DNA of 63,852 nucleotides, the filler included, from Kipferlia bialata (lineage: Eukaryota): the NCBI GenBank assembly GCA_003568945.1. It is 6 parts of 6 records of this genome, joined end to end, with 100 filler letters (N's around TTAATTAATTAA, not from the genome) between each part and the next. Parts side by side here need not be neighbours in the genome. Positions count along the whole stretch, not along the records: positions 33,219 to 47,161 come from BDIP01000879.1; 5 more parts are not named here. One strand, written 5' to 3'. The first letter of the stretch is position 1, and every line of letters starts with the position of its first letter. The position numbers and the translations under genes were made by a program. Under the pieces are notes generated by a model that saw only the letters and a list, made by a program, of their open reading frames with translations, did no database searches and was not told the DNA's origin. Shown in pieces: positions 13,962 through 63,490 of this stretch.

Positions 13962-14061
13962 NNNNNNNNNNNNNNNNNNNNNNNNNNNNNNNNNNNNNNN
14001 NNNNNTTAATTAATTAANNNNNNNNNNNNNNNNNNNNNNNNNNNNNNNNNNNNNNNNNNNN
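13962..14061. other. Artificial contig linker N44-TTAATTAATTAA-N44; also at 19074-19173, 33119-33218, 47162-47261 and 61202-61301
   Basis: The same 100-bp spacer occurs five times, and its core has stops in all six frames. Confidence 0.97.
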
Positions 14062-33218: not shown

Positions 33219-33272
<54 letters not shown>

Positions 33273-33274
33273 TA

Positions 33275-34709
33275 CATATCCTCCAGGGTGGACAGCAGGG
33301 TGGAGACCTCGGCCTAACAGTTAGTAGTATACTAGTAAGCACCACACGTGTTAATAAGTGTTATATGCAATGTACGAAGTGTTTCATCAAGGGTGGAGAC
33401 CTCGGCCTGGTATAAGTATTATGATAAAGATTTGTATAGACTATACACATATACACATATACACATAACAGGAGCTTGGAGACCTCGGCCAGGAGCGTTA
33501 GCCTGTTAGATATACACATATATGCACTGTATACCAAGTCGTATGATGTTCTTATGGTCTGGATATGCATGATTATATACACTGTTATATACCTTAAGAG
33601 ACTGTATCTCTGCCTGCACTGCCTGTCTGGGTGCAGACATGGGATATATAGCATAGTATATATACTAAATACACTACTATATATAGTATATACACTTACT
33701 ATATAATGCACCTTCAGACTCTGTATCTCTGCCTGCACTGCCTGTCTGGGTGCAGACATAGGTGAGGACACACAGGGGTCAGAGGGAGAGACACCCTGAG
33801 AATAAGGGTGCAGAGAGAGAGAGAGAGATGTGAGGACACACAAGTGTCAGAGGGAGATACACCCTAGGGTAAGTGGTATTATTCACAGTACATATACACT
33901 ATACCCCTTACCTCCAGTCTTTTCTGCAGGGCAGCCAGGTGCTGTTGCTCGGCAAAGAGCTAAGGGGTTAGATATAAAAGAATACACACACATACACTGA
34001 CTGAGGGAGTGGGTGAGAGAGAGATAAAGAGACACAGGTGCTGCTCGGCAAAGAGCTGGGAGTAAGATGTATACAAATATGTAGAGAGACATATATATCT
34101 ATAGAGAAAGAGAAATAGAGAGAGATACCTTGCCTCTCAGTGACTGTCCCATTATGCCTTTCTATTTCTCTCTCAATATACATAAACAATTTCACATGTG
34201 TATATACAGTGTCTATACCTTCTCTCTCTATATATACATCCATACCTTCTCTCTCAGTGCCTGCCCCATCTTCTTCTCTCTCTGCAGGGACTCATCAAGA
34301 CGCAGGGCACCCCTGAAGATAAGAAATTCGATTACGGATAGGGACTAGATCCAAACTAGACAGCGTCTAGGCATGCACAACGTATCACCCCCACATATAT
34401 GTTCATATCTATCTATATATATAGATACTGTACCTGGTGAACATGTTGACCAGCCGTCTCTCTCTCTCTCTCTCTCTTGCTCCTTATAGATTTAAAACAA
34501 TACATGCCTTGTAAACATGTATATGAGTAAACACATATATATTGCTATTATATATGTAATAATACTATTCTATCCCACTCTAATGACCTCGTGAACATGT
34601 TGACCAGCCATCCACCTCTCTCTCTCTCCCCCCCCCCAATATATACACAACAATATACACCCTACCCTCTCTCTATACCGTGTTAACATGTTGACCAGCC
34701 ATCTGTCGT

Positions 34710-34757
<48 letters not shown>

Positions 34758-35918
34758 GTACTCATATATATATCTCTCTATACCTCGTGAACATGTTGAC
34801 CAGCCATCTGTCATCCTTGTTGAGTGCAGACAGCAGNNNNNNNNNNNNNNNNNNNNNNNNNNNNNNNNNNNNNNNNNNNNNNNNNNNNNNNNNNNNNNNN
34901 NNNNNNNNNNNNNNNNNNNNNNNNNNNNNNNNNNNNNNNNNNNNNNNNNNNNNNNNNNNNNNNNNNNNNNNNNNNNNNNNNNNNNNNNNNNNNNNNNNNN
35001 NNNNNNNNNNNNNNNNNNNNNNNNNNNNNNNNNNNNNNNNNNNNNNNNNNNNNNNNNNNNNNNNNNNNNNNNNNNNNNNNNNNNNNNNNNNNNNNNNNNN
35101 NNNNNNNNNNNNNNNNNNNNNNNNNNNNNNNNNNNNNNNNNNNNNNNNNNNNNNNNNNNNNNNNNNNNNNNNNNNNNNNNNNNNNNNNNNNNNNNNNNNN
35201 NNNNNNNNNNNNNNNNNNNNNNNNNNNNNNNNNNNNNNNNNNNNNNNNNNNNNNNNNNNNNNNNNNNNNNNNNNNNNNNNNNNNNNNNNNNNNNNNNNNN
35301 NNNNNNNNNNNNNNNNNNNNNNNNNNNNNNNNNNNNNNNNNNNNNNNNNNNNNNNNNNNNNNNNNNNNNNNNNNNNNNNNNNNNNNNNNNNNNNNNNNNN
35401 NNNNNNNNNNNNNNNNNNNNNNNNNNNNNNNNNNNNNNNNNNNNNNNNNNNNNNNNNNNNNNNNNNNNNNNNNNNNNNNNNNNNNNNNNNNNNNNNNNNN
35501 NNNNNNNNNNNNNNNNNNNNNNNNNNNNNNNNNNNNNNNNNNNNNNNNNNNNNNNNNNNNNNNNNNNNNNNNNNNNNNNNNNNNNNNNNNNNNNNNNNNN
35601 NNNNNNNNNNNNNNNNNNNNNNNNNNNNNNNNNNNNNNNNNNNNNNNNNNNNNNNNNNNNNNNNNNNNNNNNNNNNNNNNNNNNNNNNNNNNNNNNNNNN
35701 NNNNNNNNNNNNNNNNNNNNNNNNNNNNNNNNNNNNNNNNNNNNNNNNNNNNNNNNNNNNNNNNNNNNNNNNNNNNNNNNNNNNNNNNNNNNNNNNNNNN
35801 NNNNNNNNNNNNNNTGTAATACCTTCCTCGCCCTCCCTGTCCCCCTCAAAGAGCTCCTTCATGTCCTGCATGGCAGAGACCTCACTGGAGAGGGTAAGGT
35901 TAGAGGCTAGTGTTAGAT

Positions 35919-35954
<36 letters not shown>

Positions 35955-36402
35955 CCTTCATGTCTTGCATGGCAGACACCTCAGAGGATAGGGTAAGGTT
36001 AGATGCTGATATCAGTATCAGTATATAGTATATATATACTATATATATATATATATATAAATATATGTATATATACTTCATGTCCTGCATGGCAGACACC
36101 TCGGAGGACAAGGCGGAGTTAGACGCTGGTATTAGTATATATATATATATATGTATATACATTATATATATATATATATATATATTAGTATTCATATTAG
36201 TATAATATGTGTATTCATGTCTTGCATGGCAGACACCTCACTGGAGAGGGTAAGGTTAGAGGCTGGGGTTAGTATATACATATATATATACATTATATAT
36301 ATTAATATTCATACATATATATAACATGTATGTATATGTATATACTTCATGTCCTGCATGGCAGAGACCTCGGAGGATAGAGTGGCATTAGAGGCTGATA
36401 TT

Positions 36403-36454
<52 letters not shown>

Positions 36455-36575
36455 CCTGCATGGCAGACACCTCAGAGGATAGGTACAGGTTAGAGGCTGG
36501 TATTAGAATAGATAGATAGAAAGAGAGACAGAGAGAGAATATACATTCACCCTCCTCTTTCTACTTCAGACACTG

Positions 36576-36619
<44 letters not shown>

Positions 36620-36624
36620 CCTCC

Positions 36625-36662
<38 letters not shown>

Positions 36663-36731
36663 ATATATATATATCTATATACATATAACTATACACTCAC
36701 CCTCTGCCTCCTGCATCTTGTTCAGCAGAGC

Positions 36732-36783
<52 letters not shown>

Positions 36784-38004
36784 CAATATACATATATCTA
36801 TACACTCACCCTCTGCCTCCTGCATCTTGTTCAGAAGGGCCTCTCTCTCTGCCTCCTCCCTCAGTCTCTCTCTCTCCATCTCCTCAGTCAGGGCATCCTG
36901 GTGTGAGAACAACGATACTAGAGTATATAGATAATCATACATACTATATGTAGATACTAGAGTATATAGATAATCATACATCCTATATATGTATAATAAT
37001 TGCATACATACCCTCTCCTCAGTCAGGGCATCCTAGGTGTGAGAAGTATTTGTATACTACATATGCAGTAGACTCATAAACACTATATACAATAAGGATA
37101 AGTATATACATCCTTATACATATGAATATGCCCTCTCCTCAGTCAGAGCATCCTGGTGTGAGATGTACACATATATAGAGTATATACACTTAGTATAAGT
37201 ATATAACTCATATACATACCCTCTCAGTGTGGTGCTGCATATGTATATGTAGTAGATTCATATATTCATATAAGTATATAAGTATATACAATATATATAC
37301 ACATATATATACACATATATACATACCCTCTCAGTGTGGTGCTCAGTCTTGAGGGTCTTGACCTCGGCCTGGGAGTTAGTTATATATGTATATATACATA
37401 CACATATATACATATACATATGTATATATATATAGAGAGAGAGAGAGAGAGGTGCTCTGTCTTGAGGGTCTTGACCTCGGCCTGGGGTTAGACACACACA
37501 CATTTGTACATAACTACAAATAGAGAGAGAGAGAGAGAGGTCTTGACCTCGGCCTGGGAGTTATTTATATGTACATACATATATATACACACACATACAC
37601 ATATATATATTCTATATACATACTATACATACCTTGTGCTCCGTCCTGATGGTCTCAACCTCTATATATAGATATATATATATAGATATATATATACCTA
37701 TGTATATGTAACTATCCATACATGTATATGTGTCTATCTCTCTATACCTTGTGCTCCGTCCTGATGGTCTCAACCTCAGCCTGGTGCACAGTCTGATATT
37801 AAGGGTGTAGAGGGGGAGAGAGAGAATTCATATGAATATATATGGATGTATAGTAGAGAGAGAGGGAGAGAGAGAAGCTGATGGTCTCAACCTCAGCCTG
37901 GTGCACAGTCTAGGGGTGAGACAGAAGACATATGTGTATATATGTATATGCAATAGCACACAGATGTACATCTATCTCCTCTCACTCTGTCTCCATGTGC
38001 TGTA

Positions 38005-38040
<36 letters not shown>

Positions 38041-39255
38041 CATATATACATATATACATATATATATCATACTATTGCTATTTATCTAAGTACCTCTATC
38101 TCCTCAATCTCCTTCCTGTGCTCTGTCTCAATGTGCTGTATCTCTCTCTCTCTATATGCATATGTATCTATATATCTATATATCTAAGTACCTCAATCTC
38201 CTCTATCTCCTTCCTGTGCTCTGTCTCAATGTGCTGTATCTCTCTCTCTATATATATCAATATATATATACTATAGTATATATCTAAGTACCTCCATGTG
38301 CTGTATCTCCTCCTTGTGAACCTTCTTAAGGGTCACAACCTCGGCCTGAAGTGTCAGATACGTATGATACTGACACTAAATATAAACTATATATACTATA
38401 ACTATACAACTATATATCTATAAGTAAGTATCTCCTCCTTGTGCACCTGCTTCAGAGTCACAACCTCGGCCTGGGGTCAGATATGTATGATACTATTACC
38501 ACAAATATACTATACTATATACGCTATATCAACACATTAGTAAATATACTCCTTGTGGACCTTCTTAAGGGTCACAACCTCGGCCTAGGGGGTTAGCCAT
38601 GTATGATATTTACACTTCATATATATATTATACAAAATATCAACATACATGTATATATATATACACTCACTAATTGTGCACCTTCTTCAGAGTCACAACC
38701 TCGGCCTAGAGGGTAAGAATATATATATACATATATACATACATTATCAACTATATCCATACACATATATATACTCCTTGTGCACCTTCTTCAGAGTCAC
38801 AACCTCGGCCTAGATAGTTAGCTATGTATCATATTATTACTTCATATACAATATACTATATCAACAAATACATCTATATATATATACATAAATATATATA
38901 CTCCTTGTGCACCTTCTTCAGAGTCACAACCTCGGCCTAGGGGGTAAGAAGGTATATACAATATGAATACCATATATACTCAAAGAGACGTATACACTGC
39001 ACTCTTACATATTGTACTCTCACATATACATATATACACAACCCCTTTCCATTTCCTTTCTATACAAACATGCATGAACACACCTTCACAGCCGCAATGG
39101 TGCTATCTCTCTCCATCAGATCATGTATACATACATACACACACACACACTCTCTATCTATCTAATAGCAGTATACCTTCACACTTGCTATGGTACTGTC
39201 CCTCTCCATCACATCACTCTCCATCTTCATCAGATCATATATATATACATACTAT

Positions 39256-39286
<31 letters not shown>

Positions 39287-39572
39287 AAGGTATATACTGC
39301 ATGTACCTTCACACTTGCTATCTGTGAGTCTCTCTCCATGACGTCACTCTCCGTCAGATCATGTATACATACATATACACACATACTCTATATCTATCTA
39401 ATAGCAGTATACCTTGACTGCTGCTATAGTACTGTCCCTCTCCATGACATCACTCTCCATCTCCATCAGACCATCTGTGAGTCTCTCTCCATGACGTCAC
39501 TCTCCATCTCCATAAGGTCAGCCTCCAGACTGGCGACCTCGTCCTGGTGCTCAGCCTGATAATAAGGGTGTA

Positions 39573-39608
<36 letters not shown>

Positions 39609-39731
39609 CTTGGTTAGATATCAGGTATATATGTATATATGTGTAATACTATATATATATATATATATATCAGGTATACATATACACTAACTAACCTGCA
39701 CTTGTGCCATCTCGACCTCTGCCTTCTTCTG

Positions 39732-39766
<35 letters not shown>

Positions 39767-41277
39767 AGTGTATATACTAGTATATAGTATACCATAGTGT
39801 CTATACCTGCACTTGAGCCATCTCCACCTCGGCCTTCTTCTGCACTGCCGCTATCTGGTGGGTGTGCTCAACCTAGGATTAGTACATATAGACACCATAT
39901 ATATATACAATACATGTAGATAGCTATCTATATATGGAATATGATAGGTCAATGCATATAGTGGAATCTTATGCATATTAGGTAAAATAATATATTGACA
40001 CAGAAATTCCATACATATACCCACCTTGAGCGTGTCAATCTCGATGGAGTGGTCACTCCGCAGGGTGTTGAGCTTGTCAAGGTTGAGGGTCTAGGGTTAG
40101 AGATACATAGAACACACATATACACACAATACAATATAAAAGTATTTAATACAATATACACACTATAGTAGTATTCGCATGGTGTTGAGCTTGTCCAGAT
40201 TGAGGGTCTAGGGTTAGTTAATCGATACATCAATAATATAAGTAATAATTATATGTATTATCATACACATGAAGAGAGTGTCGAATTTGTCAAGGTTCAG
40301 GGTCTGAAGGGAGGTATATAATGTCACAAACAAATACAGCGATATCGTTGTACTCTCTCAGTACCTCTATGACCCTGACTGTCTCCACGTGCTGTGTCTG
40401 CAGGGCAGCATATACATACATATATATATGTAATAATACACTATAGTACAGCCTATATTTCATATATATTTTCATACATCTATATATACATCTATATAAC
40501 ACATTATATACATACCTCTATGACCCTGACTGTCTCCACGTGCTGTGTCTGTAGGGCAGCTAGGGCCGCAAAGTGCTCGGTCTCCTATGTATTAGAGGGA
40601 GAGAGGGAGAAAGAGAGAGAGAGTCAGTATATACACAAATACAATCATTAACAATATACATGTACATACCGACTCCCTCTCTATGTCCTCGTGGTGCTTC
40701 TCTCTCTCTCTCTCTCTCTCTACATATATACATGACAGTCTATATATACCACTGTACATACCGACTCCCTCTCTATGTCCTCGTGCTGCTTCCCTCTCTC
40801 TCTCTCTCTCTCTCTCCATATATATCTGTCTATATATACCACTGTACATACCGACTCCCTCTCTATGTCCTCGTGGTGCTTCTCTCTCTCTCTCCCTCTC
40901 TCCATATATACATAACAGTCTATAAGCAGGGTACATACCGACTCCCTCTCTATGTCCTCGTGGTGCTTCTCAAGAGCAGTCAGGGTCTCGTCCTTCTTGA
41001 CCTGCGGTTAAAGGGTGTAGAGAGAGAGAGAGAGAGAGAGTCATGATCATTCTTGACCTAGAAGGTAAGGGAGGGCATACACATATATACGCCTATAATA
41101 CTACATGGATATATAGAGAGAGAGACTGGGCGTAATAGGGCAGTCAGGGTCTCGTCCTTCTTGACCTAAGGTTAAAGGGTGTAGAGACAGAGACAGAGAG
41201 AGAGAGAGATGGTAAGAGAGAGAGATGGTAGTCGAGGTCTCGTCCTTCTTGACCTATGATTAAAGGGTGTAGAGAGA

Positions 41278-41308
<31 letters not shown>

Positions 41309-43791
41309 TCAGGGTCTCGTCCTTCTTGACCTAAGGTGAGTATATACACACATATATATACTCATACATATACTTGCACAATGTAGCATTCGTAGGTATA
41401 TATAGAGTGGATGATATTTGGGCAGTCAGGGTCTCGTCCTTCTTGACCTAAGGTTAAAGGGTGTAGAGAGAGAGAGAGAGAGAGAGAGAGGAGTGTCACA
41501 ATCCAGGGCTGTTGGCAGTATTCTATAGCACTATCGGTCATAGACTCATCAATGTCCAAGTATATGAAGTACAATTACACCCATACCTCAAGCTCCGTGA
41601 TGGTCTCTCTTCTTCTCTCTCTCTCTCTCTCTCTCCCTCCCCCTCTCAAACATATACTATGCAACGTGTATATATGTGTATATAGTATATCCGTATACTA
41701 TATACTATATTCCATACCTCCAGCTCCGTGATTGTCTGTGTCAGCTTGACCTCCAGCACATCCATCTGGGGTTAGATATGTATACATACACATACATACA
41801 TAAATAAGCAAAGATAGATGTGTATATATGAAGAGAGAGAGAGAGAGAGAGAGAGAGATAGTGTCTGTGTCAGCTTGACCTCCAGCACATCCATCTGGGG
41901 GTGAGATACATACTACAAATATATACATAAATAAGCATACATATACATATGGACATGAGAGAGAGAGCGAGAGAGCAAGAGAGAGAGTGAGAAAGTGTCT
42001 GTGTCAGCTTGACATCAAACACGTCCATCTGGGGGTTAGATATACGCTTAGATAGGGGGTATCTATTGGATGAATATTAACATATAACGGTACTATAGTA
42101 TAGTATAGACTGATATGATTTGATTGTCTATATCTATACATGTATGTTGATTGTCTATATATGTACACACACACACTATAATAGTCTATACCTCCTCTTC
42201 GTGTGTCTCCTCCAGCACCTCAACTTGGTGCTTGTGCTCAGCCTCAAGGGTCACAAGGGTCTCTGCATGTAAACACATGGCATGTGTAAATACACACACA
42301 TACATATAGTGAGCCATTAGTTAGATTCTCTTACCCTTGAACTCTCTCTCCTTCTCCTCGCTGACCTCCACCATCTCAGACACAATGGCCTGGAATAAGG
42401 GTGTAGAGAGAGAGAGAAAATAAGGGTGTAGAGAGGGAGAGACAGACCAGTACGTTCCACATACATATGTATATGTATACTACAACATGTAATACATACC
42501 TAGTGCTCCTGCACCAGTGTATCTCTCTCCCCTCTCCTTATATATACTATATATATACTATATATATGCTCTATATACCTCATGCTCCTGTACTAATGTC
42601 TGCACTTCCTCCTTGTGCTGTGTCTCAAGGGTCTCTCTCTCACTCCCTCAACTTATATGATGGCAGTCTCGTGCTCGATCTCCCTACTGTTAGAGAGAGA
42701 CATAGAGTATAGAGTGTATACTTGGAGAGAGAGATAGATGTGTGTCTCGATGGCAATCTCATCCTCAATCTCCCTAGTACTAGTGGATATACACAAAACT
42801 AGAATACATACATATACATAGTATATACTGAATACAAATAGACGAAAATCCTATTGATATACCTCTCCTCCATCTGCTGTGTGAACTCCTCCTTGACCTG
42901 GGTCAGAGTCTGGATGTGCTCCTCCTGGAATAAGGGTGTAGAGGGAGAGAATAAAGGGTGTAGAGGGAGAGGAAATAGGGTGAAGAAAGTATGAATCTAG
43001 GTCTGGGGGGGGGGGGGGAGATTGAGAGCACCCGCCGCACATAAGGGTGCGGGACTACTCATCCCTACAGCCCCTACCTCTTCTCATGATACTCCTCTCT
43101 CTCTCCCTCTCTCTCAATACATAGTAGTACATACCATCCATATTCTATATATATAGAGATATATACTATACCTTCAGCTCCTCCACCCTCTCCTCATGCT
43201 CCTCCTCTCTCTCTCTCTCAATACATAGTAGAACATACCATCAATAATATACATATACATATATACTCTACCTTTAGCTCTTCCACCCTCTTCTCATGCT
43301 CCTCCTCTCTCTTCTCAAGTGTCTCCTCATACTCGGCCTCTCTACGCTCAGTCTCAAGCTGAAGAATCAATCGGAGAATCAATCGGAGAATCAATCGGAG
43401 AATCAAAATGAATATATATATATATATATATATATACCTCGTGTGCCTCGTTAGTGAGTGTGGTGCAGAGGGTGTTATGACATATACTTATACAAAGGTA
43501 CCTATTCAATTTACAATCGACTCTCCATCTCTATATGTTTCACAATATATGTAAATGTACATATATATACATATACCCATACCTCGTGTGCCTCGTTGAG
43601 TGTGGTGCGCAGGGTGTCGATGGAGGACTCGTGCTGGGCCTAGGGGTGAGCAAGTACATAGTATTACTATACTAATACTGTATATATATTAGCAATAACA
43701 TATTTCTATATATAAATGTATATGAAGAATAATAGATATAAGACAGTAAGGGTGTCGATGGAGGACTCGTGCTGGGCCTAGGGTGAATAGT

Positions 43792-43832
<41 letters not shown>

Positions 43833-43876
43833 GTACCTTCAGCTCCAGCGCATGCTCCTGGTGTGTCCCCTCCATC

Positions 43877-43912
<36 letters not shown>

Positions 43913-43985
43913 ACATACATATCACTATATACATACATATATACTATACCTTTAACTCCAGCACGTGCTCCTGGTGTGTCCCCTC

Positions 43986-44016
<31 letters not shown>

Positions 44017-46349
44017 CCCCTATATATATATGAATTAATCAATCCCTATATATATAACTATATACATATACATATACTATACCTTTAACTCCAGCACATG
44101 CTCCTGGTGTGTCCCCTCCATCCTCTCTCTCTCTCTCTCCCCCTATATATATATATATATATATATATATTACTATATACATACATATATACTATACCTT
44201 TAGCTCCAGCACATGCTCCTGGTGTGTCCCCTCCATCCTCTCCAGCACACGCTGGTGCTTCTTCTAGGGGTAAGATTGATCGTAGAATTGATCGGAGAAT
44301 TGATCGGAAATATCTAATATACTGTATCTAATATACTTGTAGCTATCCTCTCCAGCACACGCTGGTGCTTCTTCTAGGGTGTTAGAGGACAGTACTATAC
44401 ATCATATAATATAGTACACATACTGTATACGCTGGTGCTTCTTCTAATGGATGAGGAGATTGATCAGAAAATTGATCAGAAAATTGATCGGAAATATCTA
44501 ATACTGTGGCTATACTATCCTCTCAAGCACACGCTGGTGCTTCTTCTAACGGGTCAGAGGTTTGATCGGAGCATTGATCGGATAAACAAATCATACTTTA
44601 TCCTCAATGTCAAAGGCAAATGGATACATATATATATATATATATATATATGCTTATCTATCTATACCCATACCTTCTGAGTCTTGAGTGCCTTCTTGTT
44701 CTCCTTGGCCATGGTCTGGGTCTCCTGATATAAGACATACGTATAGTATATATACAGTATATTATATATATATATGTATATATATATTATTACTGTGTCT
44801 ACAAGTATAATCTCTCTTGTTCTATTTGGCCATGGTCTGGGTCTCCTGGCATAAGAACACATATATACTAACACTATTATACTGTAACAATCTATATGTA
44901 CAAATCACTAGAGAGAGAGAAAGATACTTGTTCTCCTTGGCCATAACCTGGGTCTCCTGCGTGTGGAAGGGATATGTCACCAAATACAATTTATCATATA
45001 CACTATATATGCTATACACACACACACTCTCTCTCTTTAACTATATCTCTAATATGAATATAGATAACTACATATATCTCATACCTCCACCAGCGTGTCT
45101 ATGGTTGTCTGATGGGCCACGGTCATGGACTGGATGGTGTCTGGGATTAGATGTACAGTTATATATATATATACATATATAGTATATATATAATCTACAC
45201 TATATATGATTGTGGTCCACGGTCATGGACTGGATGGTGTCTGGGATAGGAGATGTAACCATATACATATATATTAAGCCATATTTAAACAGTACTCATG
45301 GACTGGATGGTGTCTGTTTCAATATACACTCAGCGTCTCTCTCTACTATCATACTTCTCTCCCTCCAGCCCCTTAATACGTACCGTCTCTCTCTGCTATC
45401 ATGCCCTGCTTCTCAAAGATGTCAGTCTCTAGGGCCTTGACCTCCTCCTGATGCACAGACTGACATTAAGGGTGTAGAGGGAGAGAGAGAGAGAGAGAGA
45501 GAGAGATTCTCCTGATGCACAGACTGACAATAAGGGTGTAGAGGGAGAGAGAGAGAGAGAGACATTAAGGGTGTAGACCGAGAGAGAGAGACTGACACTA
45601 AAGGTGAAGAGAGAGAGAGAGAGAGAGATCCTCCTGATGCACAGACTGACATTAAGTGTGTAGAGGGGGAGAGAGAGATTGACATTAAGGGTGTAGACCG
45701 AGAGAGAGAGACTGACACTAAAGGTGTAGAGAGAGAGAGAGAGGGAGACACTACATCAAAACGGAGAGCTTACAACAGGACAATACATGATATGATTCTT
45801 TAGAAATGTGTGGAACGGGTATATTTACCTCTATCTCCTCTATCTCCTCCTTGTGCTCCTGCTTCAGAGTCACCACAGTGGCCTATAGGGTTAGAGACAT
45901 GCAAATACACACTCAAATGAGGCCTTGAAATCCGTATATCAGCAGAATCATATGTAAGTCGATCTCCGCCTTGGCCCCATGTCTATTCTTTACATATGTA
46001 AATGTAATATGCATTGTTTGTACCTGTATCTCCTGTATCTCCTCCTTGTGCTCTGTCTGCAGGGTCTCAACCTCGGCCTGGTGTGAGATATATACATGCG
46101 AATATACATATTTATCCATGGTGCTGTGTCCGTCCAACAATCTCTCTCCCTCTCCCCCTCCCTCTCTATATTTAGTATAGAGGAGTATAGTAGAGTATAT
46201 AGTATGCTACATAGTCTATACCTTGTGCTCTGTCTGCATGGTCTCCACCTCAGCAGTGTGCACAGACTGGTATTAAGGGTGTAGAGGGAGAGAGAGAGAG
46301 AGAGAGTAAGTGAGAGCGAACCCGATTGGCTATAGAAAGGGTGTATAGG

Positions 46350-46382
<33 letters not shown>

Positions 46383-47030
46383 TATCCGTACCACCAGGTC
46401 CTCGCTCTTCCCAGAGTGGTGCTCTCTCTCTCTCTCCCTCTCTGCCTCCATCTCAGAGCGGAGCGTGACAAGAGCAGCCTAAGGGTTAGAGTATATGTAT
46501 TTGTATATGCATATGTATACTATATAGAGATAGAGTAAACACAGTATATATGGTATGTCTCTGCCTCCATCTCAGAACGGAGTGCTTGGAGAGATGCCTG
46601 ACTATTAGTACTCCAATGATCTAATGACACCCTGTATATAGTATATATAGTATATCCATTAGTAATGTAGACAATGTCTCTGCCTCCATCTGTGTCTGGA
46701 GGGCTTGGAGAGATGCCTACAGTGAGTACATTAACTATAAGATGACATCTGGTATAGTACAGCAATATAGACACAATCTAGGAGTATACTACAAATTGAA
46801 TATTGTATACAGTATTATATACATATATGCATACATATATATATATATACCTCACTGTCTGCATTGAGTGCAGCCATGGCAGACTGGTATGGCAGAGTAT
46901 ATGTATACCCCATCCAATGAGTATATATATAAATATGTATATATATGTATAATAGTATATATGTATTTATACCTCATTGTCTGCCTTGAGTGCAGCCATG
47001 GCAGACTGGTGCTCAGAGGAAAGGGCCTAG
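33275..47030 (-). CDS. Very long coiled-coil protein built from His-containing ~11-aa repeats; dozens of micro-exons, partial at both ends
   Basis: Exons such as AEVETLQTEHKEEIQEIQ, AEVVTLKKVHKEEIQHME, LETERREAEYEETLEKREEEHEKRVEELK and DALTEEMERERLREEAEREALLNKMQEAE. All lie on the minus strand with typical splice sites. A 978-bp N gap is internal. Confidence 0.7.
35822..36500 (-). repeat. Array of five acceptor-plus-half-exon echoes upstream of the live ASNLTLSSEVSAMQDMKELFE exon
   Basis: Copies at about 35950, 36077, 36216, 36346 and 36453, separated by (TA)n/(GA)n tracts. Confidence 0.9.
38292..38945 (-). repeat. Array of five acceptor-plus-half-exon echoes of AEVVTLKKVHKE
   Basis: Copies at about 38430, 38549, 38674, 38774 and 38901; the complete exon is at 38292-38345. 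Confidence 0.9.
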
Positions 47031-47105
47031 AGGGTGAGAAGAGAGAGAGAGAGAGAATGCACGATAATAACTTAAGGGCCTGGAGGGTGAGAAACCATGT
47101 ACACA

Positions 47106-47161
<56 letters not shown>

Positions 47162-47349: not shown

Positions 47350-48867
47350 ATACATCAGTCAATAATGCCAGCGACCTAGCAACCCTGAGTAAAGTGGACT
47401 GGGACCCCTTTATCAAGAACGAGTTCAACGACAACGGGACTCAGGAGGAAGACACAGAGTCGGTATGTGACCCATATTAGCATTGTAATACATATGTGCC
47501 CACTACTGTATGGGCATCTTCTGACTGCAGGCCATGTGGGACGCTGAACGTGTCATCTACTCCACTGTGGGACCCATGCCTACCATCCAGTCCACAGCGG
47601 CGCCAACGGATCCATCAGGTAACAATGGTTACTTGACGTCTAACAACGTGGTAGCTCTAACTGTCGATAAGTGTAACTCGACTGACCTCTCATCATCAGT
47701 GTTCTGCCTGAGTCGCACTGTGAACGAAGACGAAGACCTGGCAAGTTACTTCTATGGTGGACTGTGTGAAGCGATGATCGAAGGTATATAGCTACTTCAT
47801 AAGTACTCTTACCTAGAGGTAATGTCTATTGTTGGGTCAACAGTATCGCCTACTTAAAGTAGGCTACTTTGATACATAATCTCACCCCAGGTGACGATCT
47901 GCCTGCCAGTGAGTATACGTCTCAGCAGCCAGACACTCAGCTCTGCGGTACCCAGGAGTTCAATGTCGACAGCCAGATGCTCACACTCAGAGGTAAGTAC
48001 TACGCGATCACATTGAATTTACTGAATGTGTATTTTCTACGCGATAAGTGTTATATACTATGTGTTAACTACGCGATAAGCATAATATATCTAACTCTAG
48101 GTTGGTGCCAGAAATCGTGGCACGACCTCAGCAGTCAGGACGATGAGTACTGTGCCAGCCAGAGAGTGCACTACGCATCACTCATATCAACCATAGACAG
48201 GTGAGGGTTTAAGCATATACTGGAGTATTCTTCTCCTTCTACTAACCTTAGCATCCCCTCCGTCTGCTCCTATTCGAATGCATATATACATGTACTACAC
48301 ATATGTTTGGCAATGAATTCACACTGGAGGGGAGTAACCATCAAAGCTACTCCTTACGCTCTAACCTTAGCATCCCCTCTGTCTGCTCCTCCTCGAATGC
48401 CCCAGGTGGCACCCCTCTCTCAGTCTCCATCCACCACACCATCAGTGAGCAGGCAAGTGCTCCATTGTGGCAACAATACAACTATAAGCTAAAATTGTGT
48501 CTCGTCGTATATGTTCACTGTGAGATGTTGGCGCCTAACTCCAGGTCACCCGGGTCACTTTTGGCAACCATGACCGCATTGACCTGTTCCTCGCAGTCAT
48601 CTCTGTCGCTTCATCAGTCTTCTGTGTCAAGCTGGTGTCAGTGCTAGTCAGCAGGTACCACACTATCACTTATCTATAAATTCGATATATTCTTCTATAT
48701 ATGGTTGATATTGAATCAATACCAAGTACACTCTCACCCCTAGGTTCTTCGACCAGAAGGCAACGACATCGCCTTCCGCAGCCCAGATCCAGCAGCGTAA
48801 GAGATTCAACCAGACATGGAGTGCAAAGACCACCAAGAAGACGGTGTCTGTGGAGGGTAGTCCATAA
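47350..48867 (+). CDS. Hypothetical Cys-containing protein with a C-terminal TM helix; 5' partial
   Basis: In-phase exons ...VDKCNSTDLSSSVFCLSR...QLCGTQEF...GWCQKSW...IDLFLAVISVASSVFCVKLVSVLV...VEGSP*. Includes a GC-AG intron at 48453-48544. Confidence 0.65.
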
Positions 48868-62263: not shown

Positions 62264-62785
62264 TTACAGGTTCTGGACGAGGGTAGCCTCGATGGCCTTG
62301 GGGTTGGCACCACGGACATCGGCAATCTGGGAGTGAGGGGTGGGGGATGGTGTATAAATAAATATGTATAAATGATGTATACGAGTCAATGCATCTGTCC
62401 CACCTTCTTCTTGTTCTTGATAAAAACAAAGGTTGGCATCGCACGTACACCAAAGGCCTGGGCAAGCTGGCCGTGCTGGTCAACGTCCACCTTGATGAAG
62501 TTGGCCTGGGGTGAGGGAAGAATGTACAGCCACACGGATACAATGTGTGAGAGAGAGAACACACGGTACCTTGGCCCCGTGGGTCTCAGACAGCTGTGCG
62601 AAGAAGGGGGTGATTGCCTTACAGGGTGGGCACCACTGAAGGTGAGGAGGTGAGGAGAGATATTAGAAAGCGAGAGACGTTCACACTATACGTACTGTGG
62701 CAAAGAAGTCGATGACCAGGAGCTTGTCCTCGGACTGCTCGAGGTAGGTGTTGAAGTCGGCGCCGCTAGTGATCTCGTGAACCAT
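62264..62785 (-). CDS. TRX: Thioredoxin, 4 exons, WCPPC active site
   Basis: MVHEITSGADFNTYLEQSEDKLLVIDFFAT|WCPPCKAITPFFAQLSETHGAK|ANFIKVDVDQHGQLAQAFGVRAMPTFVFIKNKKK|IADVRGANPKAIEATLVQNL*. Confidence 0.95.
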
Positions 62786-63490
62786 GTGTTGTTCTATAAG
62801 TGTGTTGGAGAGACACGAATGGCAAGGTCACCATAAACGAGCAGAATCATCAGGCTCTGATTCTCCGATCATTGTTGGCCACCAGATTCGGATGAACGTT
62901 TCAGATGGCCCAAGTTGAATCACTACGCCAGTCACTCTCACCCGCGTGATGCAACCTGATTCCCTGTTATGCTATTACTTGATGAATGCTCCTCTACGCC
63001 TAATGTGTTGTATATCAGTATATTATTTAGGTATATGGAGTGAACATAGTTCATATTCCTTTGAGTTGGCACTCTTCAGATCTCCATAACATACAGATAC
63101 ACCAGCCACTCTATTGCTCAGCGTACCGTATACCATGTAATGGATGGTAGTATGTCAAGTGTGGATGTAGATACCCACTTGGGAGAGCGATATCATGCTT
63201 GACAATGATACATGTACTCATAATCAAAACATAATATGTGATCACTGATCAAACGTGTCACATCATACCAGTTGAGGGTGACCATAACCGCAGACACTCA
63301 GTTCCTCGCATGGATATGAGTCTCTGTCGCTATTGGCAAAGTGTGCAGCAAAATAGGCGCGACTGGAATCCCAAGGCCTAGTGCACACGTGGTTGACCCC
63401 TGAGGGTATCAGCACTGAGCATACTGCCCACCCTAGTCCACTAGCAATACACTCCTCGTACACTCAAATACTCAGATATGCTACACCGAC

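Follow-up and report, generated by a model that had tools for sequence, protein, structure and literature searches.

Truncated copies of exon boundaries that lie in introns are an architecture already known from amphioxus, where they are called mirages. In the parts of the two papers drawn on here, mirages are tandem units that span either exon boundary, and many of them keep the AG or GT (PMC3087553, PMC3902484). Unequal crossing-over is proposed there for their origin, the host is highly heterozygous and a handful of loci are reported; at one of these, BflGb6, the units are 81-100% identical over intron and exon. The main text of PMC3087553 gives no codon-position analysis, with 0 occurrences of 'synonymous' or 'silent'. 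A related process is tandem genomic duplication (the Rogers model; Gao and Lynch; PMC3443670), in which, according to the sections considered, small intragenic duplications are tolerated with one copy spliced out, and duplication of an exon-internal AGGT creates a new intron.

Here we describe copies of this kind, called echoes in the following, from Kipferlia bialata, a free-living fornicate protist with many introns, and not from amphioxus. The window, which is the whole stretch of DNA that was analysed, has 63,852 nt from assembly GCA_003568945.1; the N44-TTAATTAATTAA-N44 spacers near positions 14010, 19123, 33168, 47211 and 61251 indicate that it consists of separate scaffolds (six pieces) joined together. 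Within these 64 kb, 83 exons were annotated by hand on the basis of splice signals, open frames and phase continuity. The RNA-hinted published model P0002 has the same three exons as the hand annotation, in frame, and skips all echoes. The published model P0001 (KIPB_004203) has seven of the hand-annotated exons in the same frame, stops one exon earlier and reads through one echo: at 23341-23104 (-) it runs through the echo and its spacer and doubles GGFTAYVPV, which is probably an annotation artefact. Annotation has been misled in amphioxus too, in the JGI PGBD5 model, as the sections of the mirage literature used here report. A GC donor and two GAG acceptors are probable at 48453 (+), 8532 (+) and 60174 (-).

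The array studied most closely belongs to a gene with many short exons (Table 1), the translation of which reads as putatively coiled-coil-like. None of 501 candidates proved to be the host protein and the representative library gave 0 matches; Pfam searches with curated cut-offs found nothing for six host-gene exons, P0001 and P0002. The live exon has an open frame with the acceptor ctaacactag and the donor gtatta, and its phase matches the upstream exon. Before it stand five truncated copies of its acceptor and its first 44-57 nt, with AT- or CT-rich spacers between them. All five have a branch-point-like motif and YAG, and their acceptor sequences vary. The nearest copy continues into (CT)n and has an open frame with the live exon.

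Table 1. Features around the focal echo array, with positions counted along the window.
Feature	Position	Strand	Description
Scaffold with host gene	33219..47161	-	27 live exons annotated, 54 anchored echoes
Assembly gap, 978 N	34837..35814		Behind live exon 35906-35823
Live exon	35823..35906	-	84 nt, phase 1 to phase 1, SNLTLSSEVSAMQDMKELFEGDREGEE; host gene many-exon, putatively coiled-coil-like
Echo 1	35949..36015 (exon part 36005-35949)	-	Acceptor + 57 nt; 5 silent, 0 replacement codons
Echo 2	36076..36135 (exon part 36125-36076)	-	Acceptor + 50 nt; 4 silent, 2 replacement codons
Echo 3	36214..36272 (exon part 36262-36214)	-	Acceptor + 49 nt; 2 silent, 0 replacement codons
Echo 4	36345..36404 (exon part 36394-36345)	-	Acceptor + 50 nt; 4 silent, 1 replacement codon
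Echo 5	36453..36506 (exon part 36496-36453)	-	Acceptor + 44 nt; 4 silent, 1 replacement codon
Upstream live exon	36810..36897	-	Ends in phase 1; has its own 5' and 3' echoes

The preliminary description of this array, made from the sequence alone, had stated that all changed codons of the nearest echo are silent. The alignment agrees: 5 of 19 codons differ, all of them silently, including a Ser AGT/TCT switch. Its readings of other copies as ASNSALSSEV, ASNATLSSEV and ASNLYLSSEV hold as well, and a further copy with two silent changes, absent from its list, reads ASNLTLSSEV. All replacements in the array fall within two adjacent codons, the aligned parts contain 0 indels and 0 stops, and an in-phase donor is absent from every focal echo, as had been described. 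Two features had been missed there: four of the five echoes contain an out-of-phase donor-like GAG/GTGTCT, and read-through joins the two nearest to the live exon in a single open frame. Ser AGT is common to echo 3 and the live exon. The start of the live exon (35905-35885, -) itself looks like a branch point plus acceptor, with its AG coming from this Ser AGT, which only echo 3 has in common with it. Of the 18 single-base variants of the focal array that could be classified, 9 are silent, more than under neutrality (P=0.017) but compatible with a pN/pS of 0.5 (P=0.37). By itself the array is modest evidence, and the strong signal is that of the whole window.

Elsewhere in the host gene, between 35823 and 47026, the exon-derived bases in echoes (1540) are about equal to the live-exon bases (1500). 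Several further contigs of run X1 match the 3' part of live exon 35906-35823, and their matches are probably 3' echoes located inside the gap behind it. At 42683-42581 (-) an intact live exon is missing: about 23 nt with an in-frame stop lie between a 5' half and a 3' half. The live copy could have been lost between two echoes, or this could be a broken haplotype or an assembly error. The exon at 39555-39413 (-) has a 43-nt internal repeat, out of frame, followed by three 3' echoes with strong silent divergence, and this exon and its echoes were excluded from the counts. At 37032-37012 (-) an echo runs into a duplicate of the donor from the preceding exon. The result is a candidate micro-exon of 21 nt, in frame (DALTEER) and bounded by strong sites, that looks like a product of whole-intron duplication.

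Scanning up to 1300 nt from the exons of the window gave 170 matches, 146 of them within the intron next to the exon. Removal of 25 matches not anchored at AG/GT and of two that were too short once trimmed left 119 anchored echoes on 56 of the 83 exons, 64 at acceptors and 55 at donors; anchoring at AG/GT was a selection criterion. Duplication of both 5' and 3' boundaries and splice-site-anchored copies are features of the amphioxus mirages as well, which are reported from far fewer loci in the sections cited above. The polarity is strict among the strong matches, with 5' parts upstream in 58 of 58 cases and 3' parts downstream in 59 of 59. Full tandem exon copies, each with an acceptor and an in-phase donor, are absent: the 128 strong matches include 11 internal ones and not a single full-length copy. 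The preliminary description had weighed full in-frame exons of a repeat protein as a counter-explanation, which does not agree with these counts or with the same bias in other genes. Two genes, at 3030-5980 (+) and 62280-62790 (-), which we take from their motifs to resemble dihydrouridine synthase and thioredoxin, have few or zero echoes by eye, and this may hint that echo density differs between genes.

The claim that echoes differ from their exons mainly at synonymous sites is borne out across the window. Tabulated by codon position, as had been proposed with that claim, the differences in the 64 kb are uneven and dominated by the third position (36, 22 and 128 at positions 1, 2 and 3), and when the spacing of variants is counted frame-free the classes hold 232, 106 and 107. 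The 186 unique variants comprise 112 silent, 66 replacement, 2 stop and 6 unclassified ones; the share of 112 in 180 compares with 25% expected under neutrality and 40% at a ratio of 0.5 (P=2e-9). Pooling gives pS=0.196 and pN=0.030 and hence pN/pS=0.152, with 0.11-0.20 from bootstrapping over exons. This ratio becomes 0.158 for the nearest echoes only, 0.163 for one echo per exon and 0.241 for all 146 raw matches. At 0-fold sites 67 of 2243 positions differ and at 4-fold sites 107 of 502 (ratio 0.14, and 0.14-0.22 across the same three subsets). The bias is present in all four genes with at least five echoes (0.10-0.18 each), and it reverses in shifted frames. Codon structure inside intron DNA, to which the preliminary description had drawn attention, is thus real and needs explaining.

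Since a dead copy can change at any site and its live partner only at silent ones, a neutral dead duplicate is expected at a ratio of about 0.5 or more against the live exon, and the observed value is far lower. Dead duplicates simulated and recovered with the same detector gave 0.47-0.48, with a minimum of 0.29 over 450 runs. Therefore most of the divergence arose while both sequences were constrained. A simulated allele model, with parameters chosen to fit, gave 0.16 with the same detector, which is a matter of sufficiency within the model and not proof.

The splice signals of the echoes vary in sequence with their consensus kept, in agreement with divergence under constraint. Compared with the live acceptors, 43% of the non-AG positions differ in an ungapped comparison, in which shifts inflate the figure (58% for unrelated acceptors), and the score is 8.3 bits against 9.3, a loss of 0.95 bit where random changes would cost 7.1. 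For donors, 36% of positions differ, with 6.3 against 6.5 bits and a loss of 0.14 against 2.5. Further out, the intron flanks have an identity of 0.66-0.70 compared with 0.60 for unrelated flanks, a weak residual homology near the splice site. Flank identity reaches at least 0.9 in seven of 119 echo-live pairs and three of 67 echo-echo pairs, and in only one of the 15 echoes that are identical over at least 24 nt. Flanks that are barely alike even beside identical exon parts are unlike a fresh duplicate on the same chromosome. The minisatellite-like similarity over the whole unit, seen at BflGb6, is thus lacking, as the similarity of the intron parts hardly exceeds that of unrelated ones; together with the far greater density, this makes the Kipferlia echoes a variant of mirages and not plain members.

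Echoes of the same exon also form mosaics. Eight of 19 site pairs (six of 15 for the focal array) fail the four-gamete test, and the variants do not form a nested series with distance. A shared free end, the truncation point, is found in 29 of 67 same-exon echo pairs compared with 10.7 expected, and these pairs differ by up to 11 nt. Many junctions continue into microsatellites, judged by eye.

The low ratio would be explained if the echoes were used now, that is, if transcripts took the splice site and codons of an echo, which would be joined to the live exon by a non-standard step and be under direct selection. This agrees with splice signals nearly as strong as the live ones, with spacings that are a multiple of three in 49 of 119 echoes, slightly above chance (P=0.045), and with a K. 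bialata spliceosome that is reduced, its snRNA candidates not found according to the part of PMC6679479 considered. Two focal echoes, among 14 of 119 overall, are also open by read-through. However, read-through in frame is blocked in the other 105, which are out of frame or contain a stop, so read-through that keeps the frame does not explain the echoes in general. A strong donor follows only six of 64 5' echoes and a strong acceptor precedes only four of 55 3' echoes. Conservation in the 54 replaced codons does not exceed that of random changes (BLOSUM -0.19 vs -0.38, P=0.22), and two of them are stops, close to the 5.2% that random change would give. Model P0002 omits every echo, and amphioxus mirages are reported, in the text of PMC3087553 considered, not to disturb splicing. 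Judged on their sequences, the echoes are likely not functioning at present, and current use is unlikely. With non-conservative replacements and stops, the best reading of the pN of about 0.03 is a ceiling on the decay since the copies died, and that of the silent excess (about 0.17) is inheritance. Strong sites that would complete a pseudo-exon are not depleted compared with shuffles (donors 7 vs 6.7, acceptors 5 vs 6.5), which would leave exon definition to polarity alone. Run X2, taken only tentatively to be RNA, contains a fraction of 0.10 of the words sampled from 35815-45800, which lies between the predictions of 0.085 for live exons alone and 0.107 for live exons plus echoes. We also doubt that the reduced spliceosome or another RNA-joining step links the half-exon of an echo to the corresponding position in the live exon, with interchangeable halves under protein-level selection.

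The remaining explanations concern the source of the copies. If they were serial snapshots of one lineage, the echoes would be nearly frozen and the silent sites of the live exon would evolve several times faster; pS does climb with distance rank from the live exon (0.17, 0.215, 0.26) while pN stays at about 0.03. Yet apart from the lack of nesting, the changes that violate the order, where the nearer echo differs and the live exon and the farther echo agree, are equally silent-biased (28 of 46), and third-position transitions lie mostly outside CpG (16 of 65 in CpG context). Since the intron flanks are more diverged than silent sites, the introns are not frozen, and we consider serial snapshots improbable. 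Paralogues or homeologues in the same genome, from an old hybrid or duplicate, are an equally doubtful source. They predict the same ratio because both copies are constrained, the genome paper suggests diploidy in the part considered, and one X1 contig with three differences could be a second exon version; on the other side are single protein matches, few duplicated BUSCOs and the six different versions in one array, which require more than two sources. Ordinary dead tandem duplicates, with a bias that reflects only selection on the live copy, would invoke a known process (PMC3443670, in the sections considered), and the focal array alone is compatible with them (P=0.37). They are very improbable, being rejected window-wide (P 3e-6 to 1e-16 by subset) and by the simulation, and even echoes with an identical exon part have different flanks. 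The Kipferlia copies also depart from tandem genomic duplication in that existing junctions are duplicated into existing introns, with a ratio of 0.15 and not about 0.5. Just as improbable is an assembly artefact in which alleles of a mixed or heterozygous culture were concatenated. The assembly is a short-read paired-end one, the culture is not described as clonal in the part of the genome paper considered, two host-gene exons look broken and the gap adjoins the array. Against this, every 55-mer of 35815-47161 is unique within the window, and repeats in the focal array are at most 36 nt long. The default settings of SPAdes go up to k=55. Every echo passes into its spacer at a junction of its own, the polarity is strict, and separate X1 contigs carry truncated copies with their own junctions at a similar depth of about 300-350, a weak guide only since X1 may be the same sample as the assembly.

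With a ratio far below about 0.5 in echoes that look dead now, the copies most likely diverged while both worked. Two copies under constraint at once are either both in use or located on different chromosomes, and we favour alleles. We therefore think it probable, on balance, that the echoes are truncated copies of an exon and its splice site, dead now, which had been working alleles on a diverged homologue and were stacked in the introns by unequal recombination. Between population alleles about 15-20% of silent sites would be different, and the introns, rich in microsatellites, would barely align, so that homologous pairing would be confined to exons of 40-120 nt. A break in or near an exon would be repaired from the diverged homologue and closed by microhomology joining, leaving the old half-exon and its splice site beside the new exon. 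Later misaligned exchanges between live exon and echo would reuse the junction and add units, each the half-exon of another allele. With splicing that joins up whichever acceptor and donor lie closest to each other across an exon, only 5' halves upstream and 3' halves downstream would be tolerated. The echoes would then decay neutrally up to about 3%, and deletion between repeats would remove them before further erosion.

Dmc1 tolerates mismatches. Metamonads lack NHEJ, and fornicates lack Rad51A and keep two Dmc1 and meiotic genes, according to the sections of PMC8516963 considered, which also give sex in metamonads as unobserved. In the hypervariable Schizophyllum commune, crossovers between diverged genotypes concentrate in conserved exons, as this model for Kipferlia requires; these are equal crossovers measured directly in crosses, and intronic half-exon copies are not described in the part of PMC4209137 considered. 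The BflGb6 alignment in supplement 4 of PMC3087553, compared by eye in the portion used, has two live alleles that differ at five silent sites, and the mirages carry the live base of the other haplotype at four of five and three of five silent allelic sites. By analogy, this would be as the allele model predicts.

Alleles were not seen in the assembly, where two exon queries each match a single protein on a single contig (KIPB_004203, KIPB_004208). BUSCO for the species' assembly counts 69 single and 6 duplicated genes of 303. Two separately assembled haplotypes with 20% divergence are not evident in the sequenced culture, so the allele model must assume inbreeding or loss of heterozygosity; the suggestion of diploidy in the genome paper comes from k-mer peaks, in the part considered. 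For other K. bialata strains, an exact-pattern scan of metagenome contigs found nothing, and a protein scan gave 70 candidates, 0 of them confirmed.

The preliminary description had offered earlier or allelic exon versions as one explanation. The allelic part is the best fit, and the earlier versions of the same lineage fail on the simulated ratio and on the nesting. It had also offered non-standard splicing, made unlikely by the stops, the non-conservative replacements and the 105 blocked read-throughs, and silent gene-conversion cassettes. In antigenic variation, such cassettes are non-expressed partial copies near an expressed locus that yield mosaic variants and diversify the protein; the echoes differ from these in that they have splice sites, are spread over many unrelated genes and vary mainly at silent positions. 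Conversion confined to one lineage is rejected on theoretical grounds: both copies would gain silent differences but only one would gain replacements, and with similar rates of clearance for the two kinds of difference the ratio would be about 0.5 or more. Exchange into the live exon is nevertheless probably part of the turnover.

In the literature searched, neither a near-universal echo density nor a ratio below 0.5 is described; the original mirage paper (Canestro 2002), outside this coverage, may discuss codon bias. Echoes of this kind in Kipferlia are likewise not described there, and the main text of the genome paper, as far as considered, contains 0 occurrences of 'duplicat'.

Echoes corrupt gene models and fragment assemblies in K. 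bialata. That 1.4 near-perfect decoy splice sites per exon are tolerated points to exon-defined splicing in a reduced spliceosome. If the allele reading is true, the introns of one genome would store many alleles per exon and form a record of hidden genetic exchange, and an echo-versus-exon pN/pS below 0.5 would be a single-genome test for hidden outcrossing. It would also give a testable origin for the amphioxus mirages and a concrete route for intron growth and turnover in this lineage.
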